This document shows, one piece after another, positions 18,889 through 47,842 of a DNA stretch of 64,000 nucleotides. Positions within the stretch are counted from its first letter, which is position 1. Every line of letters begins with the position of its first letter. Location of the stretch: the NCBI RefSeq assembly GCF_003334385.1, contig NZ_QOWN01000020.1, one strand, 5' to 3'. A program made the translations under genes and the position numbers. The notes under the pieces were generated by a model. That model saw only the letters and a list, made by a program, of their open reading frames with translations. It did not search any database and was not told the DNA's origin. The DNA comes from Escherichia coli. Its GTDB lineage: Bacteria > Pseudomonadota > Gammaproteobacteria > Enterobacterales > Enterobacteriaceae.

Positions 18889-19018
18889 AGTGTGGTAGAA
18901 TATCAGCTTACTATTGCTTTACGAAAGCGTATCCGGTGAAATAAAGTCAACCTTTAGTTGGTTAATGTTACACCAACAACGAAACCAACACGCCAGGCTT
19001 ATTCCTGTGGAGTTATAT

Positions 19019-19348
19019 ATGAGCGATAAAATTATTCACCTGACTGACGACAGTTTTGACACGGATGTACTCAAAGCGGACGGGGCGATCCTCGTCGATT
19101 TCTGGGCAGAGTGGTGCGGTCCGTGCAAAATGATCGCCCCGATTCTGGATGAAATCGCTGACGAATATCAGGGCAAACTGACCGTTGCAAAACTGAACAT
19201 CGATCAAAACCCTGGCACTGCGCCGAAATATGGCATCCGTGGTATCCCGACTCTGCTGCTGTTCAAAAACGGTGAAGTGGCGGCAACCAAAGTGGGTGCA
19301 CTGTCTAAAGGTCAGTTGAAAGAGTTCCTCGACGCTAACCTGGCGTAA
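19019..19348 (+). CDS. trxA: Thioredoxin 1
   Basis: ORF track begins 18914; trimmed to ATG 19019 ([13 protein letters not shown]), WCGPC active site. Confidence 0.95.
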
Positions 19349-35632: not shown

Positions 35633-35709
<77 letters not shown>

Positions 35710-35766
35710 TTTAGTCCCGGCGCTTGAGCTGCGGTGGTAGTAATACCGCGTAACAAGATTTGTAGT

Positions 35767-35843
35767 GGTGGCTATAGCTCAGTTGGTAGAGCCCTGGATT
35801 GTGATTCCAGTTGTCGTGGGTTCGAATCCCATTAGCCACCCCA
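35767..35843 (+). tRNA. hisR: tRNA-His (anticodon GUG), with extra 5' G
   Basis: GGTGGCTATAGCTCAGTTGG...GCCACCCCA, anticodon loop ATTGTGATT. Confidence 0.95.
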
Positions 35844-35863
35844 TTATTAGAAGTTGTGACAAT

Positions 35864-35950
35864 GCGAAGGTGGCGGAATTGGTAGACGCGCTAGCTTCAG
35901 GTGTTAGTGTCCTTACGGACGTGGGGGTTCAAGTCCCCCCCCTCGCACCA
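35864..35950 (+). tRNA. leuT: tRNA-Leu (anticodon CAG), long variable arm
   Basis: GCGAAGGTGGCGGAATTGG...CCCTCGCACCA, 87 nt. Confidence 0.95.
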
Positions 35951-35992
35951 CGACTTTAAAGAATTGAACTAAAAATTCAAAAAGCAGTATTT

Positions 35993-36069
35993 CGGCGAGT
36001 AGCGCAGCTTGGTAGCGCAACTGGTTTGGGACCAGTGGGTCGGAGGTTCGAATCCTCTCTCGCCGACCA
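35993..36069 (+). tRNA. proM: tRNA-Pro (anticodon UGG)
   Basis: CGGCGAGTAGCGCAGCTTGG...TCGCCGACCA, anticodon loop TTTGGGA. Confidence 0.95.
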
Positions 36070-39698: not shown

Positions 39699-39905
39699 GT
39701 AGATGCTCATTCCATCTCTTATGTTCGCCTTAGTGCCTCATAAACTCCGGAATGACGCAGAGCCGTTTACGGTGCTTATCGTCCACTGACAGATGTCGCT
39801 TATGCCTCATCAGACACCATGGACACAACGTTGAGTGAAGCACCCACTTGTTGTCATACAGACCTGTTTTAACGCCTGCTCCGTAATAAGAGCAGGCGTT
39901 TTTTT
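39699..39905 (+). ncRNA. glmZ: Small RNA GlmZ
   Basis: Recognised GTAGATGCTCATTCCATCTCTTATGTTCGCC...; ends in hairpin GCCTGCTCCGTAATAAGAGCAGGCG plus T7. Confidence 0.85.
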
Positions 39906-43149: not shown

Positions 43150-44087
43150 GCCGGGGCGTCTCCGTTATAGACTTCAGCGAGGATCTCGCGCGCGCCGTTA
43201 TTCAGTAGCTCTTCTGCCAGCGAAATCCCCATTTGTTCGGCATCTTGCGGCGCACCGCGGCGTTCACCGCGAATAATCTGCGAACCGTCCGGCGCGCCGA
43301 CCAGCGCACGCAGCCAGATTTCGCCATCAATAAGCTCGGCGTAGCTACCAATTGGCACCTGACATCCGCCTTCGAGACGGGTATTCATGGCGCGTTCTGC
43401 GGTAACGCGCAGTGCAGTTTCGTGGTGATTCAGCGCGGCAAGCAGCTCGCGAGTGCGTGAATCATCAAGGCGGCATTCAATACCCACCGCACCTTGTCCT
43501 ACCGCCGGAAGAGAAATCTCGGGTGGCAACGCGGCGCGAATACGTGACTCCAGACCTAAACGTTTTAGTCCGGCTACGGCAAGAATGATGGCATCGTATT
43601 CGCCGTTATCCAGTTTGCTCAGGCGAGTGCCGACGTTGCCGCGCAGGGAGCGGATAATCAGATCCGGACGGCGTTCAGCCAGTTGGCACTGGCGACGTAA
43701 ACTGGACGTCCCGACGATACTGCCTGCCGGTAACGCATCCAGACTGTCATAGTTATTGGACACAAAGGCATCGCGAGGATCTTCACGCTCACAAATAGTG
43801 ACCAGTCCCAGACCTTGCGGGAATTCAACCGGCACATCTTTCATTGAGTGTACGGCGATATCGGCGCGATTTTCGAGGAGCGCGACTTCCAGCTCTTTTA
43901 CAAATAAGCCTTTTCCGCCTACTTTCGCCAGCGGCGTATCAAGAATCACATCGCCGCGCGTCACCATCGGTACCAGTTCAACGACCAGGCCCGGATGGCT
44001 CGCCATCAACTTGTCTTTGACATAGTGTGCCTGCCAGAGTGCAAGTGGGCTTTGGCGTGTGGCAATTCTTAAAACATTGTCTAACAT
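43146..44087 (-). CDS. hemC: Porphobilinogen deaminase (hydroxymethylbilane synthase)
   Basis: ORF track extends to 44108; trimmed to [20 protein letters not shown], 313 aa. Confidence 0.9.
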
Positions 44088-44473
44088 GCTTGTTACCGTC
44101 ATTATCATCCGTGGTCCATCCTAACATCCTTGCCAGAGTGATGTCAGTGTTGTGGTGAAACGTAGACGCCTGCGCAAACCGTAAAATGAGGTCTGGCAGT
44201 GGATCCTGACAGGCGTTTCACGCCGTTGTAATAAGGAATTTACAGAGAATAAACGGTGCTACACTTGTATGTAGCGCATCTTTCTTTACGGTCAATCAGC
44301 AAGGTGTTAAATTGATCACGTTTTAGACCATTTTTTCGTCGTGAAACTAAAAAAACCAGGCGCGAAAAGTGGTAACGGTTACCTTTGACATACGAAATAT
44401 CCCGAATGCCGCGTGTTACCGTTGATGTTGGCGGAATCACAGTCATGACGGGTAGCAAATCAGGCGATACGTC

Positions 44474-47020
44474 TTGTACCTCTATATTGAGACTCTGAAA
44501 CAGAGACTGGATGCCATAAATCAATTGCGTGTGGATCGCGCGCTTGCTGCTATGGGGCCTGCATTCCAACAGGTCTACAGTCTACTGCCGACATTGTTGC
44601 ACTATCACCATCCGCTAATGCCGGGTTACCTTGATGGTAACGTTCCCAAAGGCATTTGCCTTTACACGCCTGATGAAACTCAACGCCACTACCTGAACGA
44701 GCTTGAACTGTATCGTGGAATGTCAGTACAGGATCCGCCGAAAGGTGAGCTTCCAATTACTGGTGTATACACCATGGGCAGCACCTCGTCCGTAGGGCAA
44801 AGTTGTTCCTCTGACCTGGATATCTGGGTCTGTCATCAATCCTGGCTCGATAGCGAAGAGCGCCAATTGCTACAACGTAAATGTAGCCTGCTGGAAAACT
44901 GGGCCGCCTCGCTGGGTGTGGAAGTCAGCTTCTTCCTGATTGATGAAAACCGCTTCCGTCATAATGAAAGCGGCAGCCTGGGGGGCGAAGATTGTGGCTC
45001 CACCCAGCATATACTGCTGCTTGACGAATTTTATCGTACCGCCGTGCGTCTCGCCGGTAAGCGTATTCTGTGGAATATGGTGCCGTGCGACGAAGAAGAG
45101 CATTACGACGACTATGTGATGACGCTTTACGCGCAGGGCGTGCTGACGCCAAATGAATGGCTGGATCTCGGTGGCTTAAGCTCGCTTTCTGCTGAAGAGT
45201 ACTTTGGTGCCAGCCTTTGGCAGCTCTACAAGAGTATCGATTCCCCATACAAAGCGGTACTGAAAACACTGCTGCTGGAAGCCTATTCCTGGGAATACCC
45301 GAACCCACGTCTGCTGGCGAAAGATATCAAACAGCGTTTGCACGACGGCGAGATTGTATCGTTTGGTCTCGATCCATACTGCATGATGCTGGAGCGTGTT
45401 ACTGAATACCTGACGGCGATTGAAGATTTTACCCGTCTGGATTTAGTACGTCGCTGCTTCTATTTAAAAGTGTGCGAAAAGCTCAGCCGTGAACGCGCCT
45501 GCGTAGGCTGGCGTCGCGCAGTGTTGAGCCAGTTAGTGAGCGAGTGGGGTTGGGACGAAGCTCGTCTGGCAATGCTCGATAACCGCGCTAACTGGAAGAT
45601 TGATCAGGTGCGTGAGGCGCACAACGAGTTGCTCGACGCGATGATGCAGAGCTACCGTAATCTGATCCGCTTTGCGCGTCGCAATAACCTTAGCGTCTCC
45701 GCCAGTCCGCAGGATATCGGCGTGCTGACGCGTAAGCTGTATGCCGCGTTTGAAGCATTACCAGGTAAAGTGACGCTGGTAAACCCGCAGATTTCACCCG
45801 ATCTCTCGGAACCGAATCTGACCTTTATTTATGTGCCGCCGGGCCGGGCTAACCGTTCAGGTTGGTATCTGTATAACCGCGCGCCAAATATTGAGTCGAT
45901 CATCAGCCATCAGCCGCTGGAATATAACCGTTACCTGAATAAACTGGTGGCGTGGGCATGGTTTAACGGCCTGCTGACCTCGCGCACCCGTTTGTATATT
46001 AAAGGTAACGGCATTGTCGATTTGCCTAAGTTGCAGGAGATGGTCGCCGACGTGTCGCACCATTTCCCGCTGCGCTTACCTGCACCGACACCGAAGGCGC
46101 TCTACAGCCCGTGTGAGATCCGCCATCTGGCGATTATCGTTAACCTGGAATATGACCCGACAGCGGCGTTCCGCAATCAGGTGGTGCATTTCGATTTCCG
46201 TAAGCTGGATGTCTTCAGCTTTGGCGAGAATCAAAATTGCCTGGTAGGTAGCGTTGACCTGCTGTACCGCAACTCGTGGAACGAAGTGCGTACGCTGCAC
46301 TTCAACGGCGAGCAATCGATGATCGAAGCCCTGAAAACTATTCTCGGCAAAATGCATCAGGACGCCGCACCGCCAGATAGCGTGGAAGTCTTCTGTTATA
46401 GCCAGCATCTGCGCGGCTTAATTCGTACTCGCGTGCAGCAACTGGTTTCTGAGTGTATTGAATTGCGTCTTTCCAGCACCCGCCAGGAAACCGGGCGTTT
46501 CAAGGCGCTGCGCGTTTCTGGTCAAACCTGGGGGTTGTTCTTCGAACGCCTGAATGTATCGGTACAGAAACTGGAAAACGCCATCGAGTTTTATGGCGCG
46601 ATTTCGCATAACAAACTGCACGGCCTGTCAGTGCAGGTTGAAACCAATCACGTCAAATTACCGGCGGTGGTGGACGGCTTTGCCAGCGAAGGGATCATCC
46701 AGTTCTTTTTCGAAGAAACGCAAGACGAGAATGGCTTTAATATCTACATTCTCGACGAAAGCAACCGGGTTGAGGTATATCACCACTGCGAAGGCAGCAA
46801 AGAGGAGCTGGTACGTGACGTCAGTCGCTTCTACTCGTCATCGCATGACCGTTTTACCTACGGCTCAAGCTTCATCAACTTCAACCTGCCGCAGTTCTAT
46901 CAGATTGTGAAGGTTGATGGTCGTGAACAGGTGATTCCGTTCCGCACAAAATCTATCGGTAACATGCCGCCTGCCAATCAGGATCACGATACGCCGCTAT
47001 TACAGCAATATTTTTCGTGA
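44474..47020 (+). CDS. cyaA: Adenylate cyclase (class I), TTG start
   Basis: 848-aa ORF beginning with TTG at 44474 ([19 protein letters not shown]). Confidence 0.95.
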
Positions 47021-47380: not shown

Positions 47381-47842
47381 TGTTGTATCCTGTTTTTAAG
47401 TGATGGCGGCAGTATAGCGGCATGGGGTCAGGGCTTCAAAGTTTGCACCTCTGCGGCTGCGTTCCGGCACGATTCATCCGTCACCGGAATAATGATGTCT
47501 CTGTGTAGCGAAAGATTTGTCTCTTCATTAGGGCGCAGTTACACCACGTCTTTCCCTGTTTCTGGTAAACATTATGATCAGGTTTACCGAGCGAGCATCC
47601 TCACGCTGACGGAACTAAAAAAGACAACAAACAAACCACATTGCGATAGTGCATAAAGCCATCCTGGCGCGAGGTGCCGATCACGAAACTACCAGCAAAA
47701 CATAAATCCCCACGAGTAAGCGTTATACTCGCAGCATTTCCTCACTTTTCAGACTTCATAAAGAGTCGCTAAACGCTTGCTTTTACGTCTTCTCCTGCGA
47801 TGATAGAAAGCAGAAAGCGATGAACTTTACAGGCAATCCATA

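Follow-up and report, generated by a model that had tools for sequence, protein, structure and literature searches.

Conservation of the UUG start of cyaA and of its weak initiation context points to low translation initiation as a limit on adenylate cyclase in Escherichia coli

The stretch of Escherichia coli DNA analyzed here (64,000 nt, hereafter the window) contains, at positions 44474..47020 on the forward strand (+), a cyaA coding sequence that is recognized both by RefSeq and by Pfam, encodes a class I adenylate cyclase of 848 amino acids, and in the ORF analysis is opened by a TTG codon at 44474-44476. The protein carries PF12633 (Adenyl_cycl_N) over residues 5-200 (E = 6.7e-79) followed by PF01295 (Adenylate_cycl class-I) over residues 228-825 (E = 3.8e-258), and with this succession of domains CyaA is a class I adenylate cyclase. 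A sequence search of the PDB with CyaA returned no solved relative and hence offers no structural view of residues 1-26. The gene order is the enterobacterial arrangement of the E. coli chromosome: hemC and cyaA are divergent, and downstream of cyaA lies the convergent cyaY. In Vibrio-like, Photobacterium, and Aeromonas loci, too, hemC lies upstream of cyaA. Between cyaY and lptM, RefSeq records a frameshifted “DKNYY family protein” pseudogene fragment in the reference strain (L001 6957-7135, approximately 47506-47684 of the window).

The region surrounding the start is highly conserved within the species: the 601 nt around it are present in all 5426 complete E. coli genomes (5426/5426), at an identity of at least 99% in 4748 of them, and the annotations beneath these matches are hemC and cyaA. 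The inner 71 nt (44440-44510) have at least 99% identity in 5418 of the 5426 genomes, and in the single divergent genome examined, the mismatch falls at 44442 and leaves the TTG intact. The hemC-cyaA junction has a plasmid-borne copy in one E. coli record and occurs twice in at least one genome. Elsewhere in the window, Rfam and ARAGORN identify the GlmZ sRNA (39699-39905), the trxA 5′ UTR thermometer (18949-19048), a “Rev39 5′ UTR” match upstream of the ilv operon (3546-3838), a 5S rRNA with tRNA-Asp and tRNA-Trp (1-330), and the argX-hisR-leuT-proM tRNA cluster (35633-36069), all of which are expected for this region of E. coli.

The initial annotation read cyaA as an 848-codon frame that begins at TTG 44474 and has its first in-frame Met at codon 27 (44552-44554), a reading borne out by the sequence and by the RefSeq coding sequence, and it proposed a comparison with the characterized cyaA start. 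In a strain identical to the window over the 601 nt around the start, the RefSeq cyaA coding sequence (locus 3925-6471) corresponds to 44474-47020, so that the RefSeq start coincides with TTG 44474. An in-frame TAG at 44453..44455 (+), 21 nt 5′ of the TTG, bars any upstream start in E. coli, and TTG 44474 is the first ATG, GTG, or TTG 3′ of this stop. That a TTG heads an entry in an ORF list is, by itself, mechanical. The assignment of 44474..44476 (+) as the initiation codon derives instead from the RefSeq start, from conservation, and from a Pfam match that begins as early as residue 5, which together uphold the initial view of this TTG as the start.

To examine conservation, we compared one genome per species at 80 loci, all from Enterobacteriaceae and with protein identities of 92-99%, of which 79 were usable. 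The aligned start codon is TTG in 79/79 species, and a near-invariant AACATCAGGCGATAYGTC directly precedes it. Upstream of approximately position -18, the sequences diverge, acquire indels, and contain in-frame stops at differing places, and neither the 79 species nor an alignment of 13 genera keeps any longer frame. Downstream, the only amino acid change within residues 2-26 is a conservative D21E replacement, seen in two of the 79 species, and the sequence is identical in the remaining 77; apart from this replacement, codons 2-26 vary only synonymously and with a strict 3-nt periodicity. All four codons for Thr7 are in use among these species, and there is synonymous variation at Leu8, Ile15, Asn16, Leu18, Arg19, Val20, Ala23, Leu24, Ala25, and Ala26. 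Because codons 2-26 bear the signature of translated sequence, initiation must occur at or before about codon 4-7, and because nearby Leu codons vary synonymously while every lineage has a stop or a frame-breaking indel upstream, the invariance of the TTG is not mechanical. Taken together, these comparisons identify UUG as the only canonical start that is compatible with the conserved, translated N-terminus.

This pattern extends to more remote relatives. Of seven more distant homologues whose DNA we analyzed, five have TTG at the aligned position: two from Enterobacterales (80% and 71% identity), one from a Vibrio-like locus, and those of Photobacterium sanctipauli and Aeromonas veronii. In these five, in-frame stops precede the TTG by 12-48 nt. 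The remaining two, from still more distant lineages, start with ATG and have a slightly different N-terminus. Roy et al. reportedly assigned the UUG start in 1983 by means of a cya-lac hybrid protein. UUG has been described as beginning cyaA in many Enterobacterales and other Gammaproteobacteria (PMC5499595), with which the distant loci agree. The TTG start of cyaA is, in short, already known: it is annotated in reference genomes and was shown by mutagenesis in 1985, and the cyaA UUG is a classic example of a non-AUG bacterial start codon that limits expression. Among start-site data sets, the TRAINSPOTTER N-terminomics, TetRP, and ribosome-signature supplements have no entry for cyaA.

Within the frame, there are three further candidate starts: ATG codon 27 at 44552..44554 (+), and the TTG of codon 18 (44525) and the GTG of codon 20 (44531), which together span 44525..44533 (+) and were absent from the initial annotation. 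Were translation to begin at any of these, TTG 44474 would be merely the mechanical head of the frame, a reading to which we give almost no credence. ATG27 is invariant in the 79 species, but this is uninformative given that Met has a single codon, and the Term-seq 3′ end that falls at 44552 is probably a coincidence. Neither codon 18 nor codon 20 is conserved as a start codon, the former being CTG in 55 of the 79 species and the latter GTC or GTA in 29 of 79. For ATG27, there is no Shine-Dalgarno (SD) sequence at a proper spacing (the best value, -3.1 kcal/mol, comes from pairing far upstream), and codons 2-26 are constrained at the protein level. More generally, an internal start conflicts with the near identity of residues 2-26 amid synonymous, 3-nt-periodic codon change, with a Pfam N-terminal domain that already aligns from residue 5, with an N-terminal alignment that reaches Vibrio and Aeromonas, and with a published change of UUG to AUG that raises expression (Reddy et al., 1985, in the form quoted in PMC5499595). 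We also considered codons 1-26 as a noncoding leader and rejected this possibility, since the amino acids are essentially invariant and changes fall at synonymous sites (D21E in 2/79). As judged from the alignments, ATG27 is excluded as a conserved start, although an additional, minor CyaA isoform may arise from it. The argument from synonymous-only change over codons 2-26, which excludes the internal ATG without an experiment, is one gain of the present analysis.

Another is a corrected boundary for the intergenic region. The initial annotation had treated the sequence upstream of cyaA as a long regulatory region beginning at 44109; its regulatory character is supported by an invariant promoter-like block and a CRP-like site, but the boundary is not, and the region instead occupies 44088..44473 (386 bp, with no strand assigned) and is common to the divergent hemC and cyaA. 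The annotated hemC start is the ATG at 44087, which is conserved in 77/77 species and yields a protein beginning MLDNVLRIA; the longest hemC ORF begins at ATG 44108 (MIMTVTSM...) and was the source of the 44109 boundary.

Within this region, a block at approximately 44271-44325 is invariant in the 13-genus alignment. It contains a candidate promoter at 44285..44313 (+), consisting of a -35 hexamer TTTACG (44285-90), a 17-nt spacer, and a TGn-extended -10 hexamer TAAATT (44308-13). From this arrangement, we infer that it would be the main cyaA promoter, with a 5′ UTR some 150 nt long. A consensus promoter scan made no call at the conserved block; its only hits were two marginal ones close to hemC. 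A CRP-like site, TGTTAAATTGATCACG at 44305..44320 (+), has two mismatches and overlaps both the candidate -10 hexamer and the +1 position. Matches to the CRP consensus number 15 in the window against 26 expected and so are not above chance; the CRP-like match is uninformative alone and becomes meaningful through the conservation data, the site departing from invariance across the 13 genera by one A/G change only. Aiba in 1985 reportedly described a promoter, P2, that is repressed by cAMP-CRP.

The near-invariant sequence can be followed in the 13 genera over 44258-44325, where a palindrome, GCTACA-N6-TGTAGC (44258-75), accompanies the candidate extended -10 promoter and the CRP-like site; the left arm of this palindrome is lost in Cedecea and Buttiauxella. 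A second conserved block of the leader, GGTAACGGTTACCTTTGACATAC at 44371-44393, contains both a palindrome, GGTAAC-G-GTTACC, and a TTGACA hexamer, which is perfect but has no conserved -10 hexamer at 17 nt; this block may represent another promoter or a site for protein or RNA. Beyond it, from approximately 44394 to 44455, the 5′ UTR is rich in indels in the 13-genus alignment. An Rfam scan of 43900-44800, which takes in the leader and the start region, gave no match at E <= 1.

In E. coli, an upstream ORF (uORF) of 17 codons, from ATG 44445 to TGA 44498, runs across the cyaA TTG in another reading frame and could in principle control cyaA initiation through translational coupling or occlusion. 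The uORF is real as an ORF, and its start codon is better than that of cyaA itself, as is, by a small margin, its SD sequence (-4.8 kcal/mol). Its frame, however, is not kept, because in E. albertii, Salmonella, and several Citrobacter, a 1-nt indel brings the ATG into frame with cyaA at -30, and in most genera, including Klebsiella, Enterobacter, Kosakonia, and Cedecea, the ATG is missing altogether; the 5′ UTR around it is the indel-rich segment described above. With neither its presence nor its frame conserved, we reject the uORF as a means of controlling cyaA and regard such control as very improbable. The in-frame ATG at -30 could nonetheless mislead gene callers into adding a 10-residue extension in the species that have it.

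The context of the UUG is itself weak. Upstream of it, a weak SD-like AGGCGA at 44462..44467 (+), with its AGG at -12 to -10, lies within a conserved AUCAGGCGA that is invariant in 9/9 aligned Enterobacterales and 13/13 aligned genera and near-invariant across the 79 species (78-79 of 79). The best pairing with the anti-SD at the 3′ end of 16S rRNA, sought over positions -20 to -4, amounts to -2.9 kcal/mol at cyaA and involves this AGGCGA; the element is weak, though its spacing is workable. Among the 56 coding sequences annotated in the surrounding 64 kb of the reference strain, cyaA ranks 46th in SD strength, and just two of these 56 start with TTG.

Around the start codon, positions -18 to +20 (44456..44493, +) form a near-invariant initiation region that includes even the synonymous sites of codons 2-6. 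These codons read TAC CTC TAT ATT GAG, and their silent sites are nearly frozen across the 79 species: the mean synonymous entropy over cyaA codons 2-6 is 0.034, compared to 0.93 for codons 7-300, and is the lowest of 233 five-codon windows. As a control, we examined hemC in the same genomes, in which codons 2-6 again constitute the lowest window, although less extremely so (0.45 versus 1.23). Conservation at the cyaA start would thus seem to be mostly the constraint that applies to gene starts in general, stronger here than at hemC.

Such strong conservation raises the question of whether the UUG is kept for conditional regulation, either because initiation at it resists ppGpp, cold, or starvation, as proposed in PMC5499595, or because a trans-acting sRNA or protein acts on positions -18 to +20. 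The excess of conservation over the hemC start (0.034 of 0.93 at cyaA and 0.45 of 1.23 at hemC) and the extension of the UUG beyond the Enterobacterales are consistent with this explanation, as are the argument that UUG mRNAs compete well under stress (PMC5499595) and the repression of cyaA mRNA by Qrr sRNAs in V. cholerae. Reduced synonymous change at gene starts is, however, general, as the hemC control indicates, and codons 2-6 do vary silently in relatives at 71-80% identity. Moreover, the start region yields no Rfam match and no significant structure (its RNA fold is no more stable than those of shuffled sequences; z = 0.05), and we found no E. coli regulator of the -18 to +20 site in the literature searched. 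We therefore consider conditional regulation an unlikely reason for the retention of the UUG.

The explanation that we prefer, and hold with high confidence, is that cyaA is translated from UUG 44474 and that a weak start codon together with a weak SD sequence results in low initiation and keeps adenylate cyclase low whatever the rate of transcription. Under this model, the UUG at 44474 would serve as the translation start, its weakness, compounded by the weak and somewhat distant AGGCGA, would impose a low rate of initiation, and low initiation would in turn hold adenylate cyclase at a low level independently of how much transcript is made. That weak initiation limits adenylate cyclase was also asserted in the initial annotation and is the published conclusion from mutagenesis of the cyaA start: UUG, GUG, and AUG supported adenylate cyclase synthesis in the ratio 1:2:6 (Reddy, Peterkofsky, and McKenney, PNAS 1985, as quoted in PMC5499595).

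Published data on transcript ends add a possible second stage. Adams et al. (2021, PMC7815308) found that Rho terminates cyaA transcription prematurely, and the effect of Rho is lost in a fusion containing only the 5′ UTR, which locates termination inside the cyaA coding sequence; these authors regard a connection between termination of this kind and regulated translation initiation as probable. In the supplement to that study, one cyaA 3′ end is placed 78 nt from the start, at MG1655 3991231 (44552 of the window), and another at 3991346 (44667), with a Rho region at 3991343 (44664). A 3′ end that lies 78 nt from the start means that the start annotated in PMC7815308 is the TTG. The first of these ends coincides with the first base of ATG codon 27 (44552), and the second, together with the Rho-termination region, marks 44664..44667 (+) in the early cyaA ORF.

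A second patch of suppressed synonymous change occurs at 44636-44683, covering codons 55-58 (GGT AAC GTT CCC) and 64-70 (TAC ACG CCT GAT GAA ACC CAA), and coincides with the Term-seq 3′ end at 44667 and the Rho region at 44664. A hairpin, AAAGGC-AUUU-GCCUUU, can be drawn just before the 3′ end at 44667, but we discounted it because it is not conserved, codons 59 and 63 varying in the amino acid that they encode.

The preferred model of low initiation and Rho termination inside cyaA together suggest how the translational limit could be strengthened further, in a way that can be tested: sparse loading of ribosomes at the UUG would leave the early ORF exposed, and exposure of the early ORF could promote Rho termination about 190 nt into cyaA, so amplifying the limit set by translation. 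This link between the UUG and Rho termination is our own inference. A bolder version of the idea, which we regard as doubtful and less likely still than conditional regulation in general, is that the 38 nt from -18 to +20 form a docking site for an sRNA or protein that tunes initiation at the UUG and, as a consequence, the Rho termination at around nucleotide 190 of cyaA; if true, docking at -18 to +20 would constitute a post-transcriptional layer of control on cAMP synthesis in E. coli.

With respect to known systems, the gene described here is that of E. coli K-12 (cyaA, b3806; Roy et al. 1983, Reddy et al. 1985): the gene and the codon are the same, and nothing differs. In the study that reported Rho-dependent premature termination of cyaA, termination tied to translation initiation was also described for cfa, eptB, mdtJ, and sugE (PMC7815308); for mdtJ, both a uORF and a ligand have been identified (PMC7815308), whereas no regulator is known for cyaA. 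Among unusual start codons, the AUU of infC acts as the sensor of the IF3 autoregulatory loop, a form of feedback that is not known for the cyaA UUG. The infC AUU nevertheless belongs, with the UUG of spoT and the GUG of hupB (PMC5499595, Table 1), to the conserved weak starts found on dosage-sensitive regulatory genes, and the UUG of cyaA is likewise a start of this kind.
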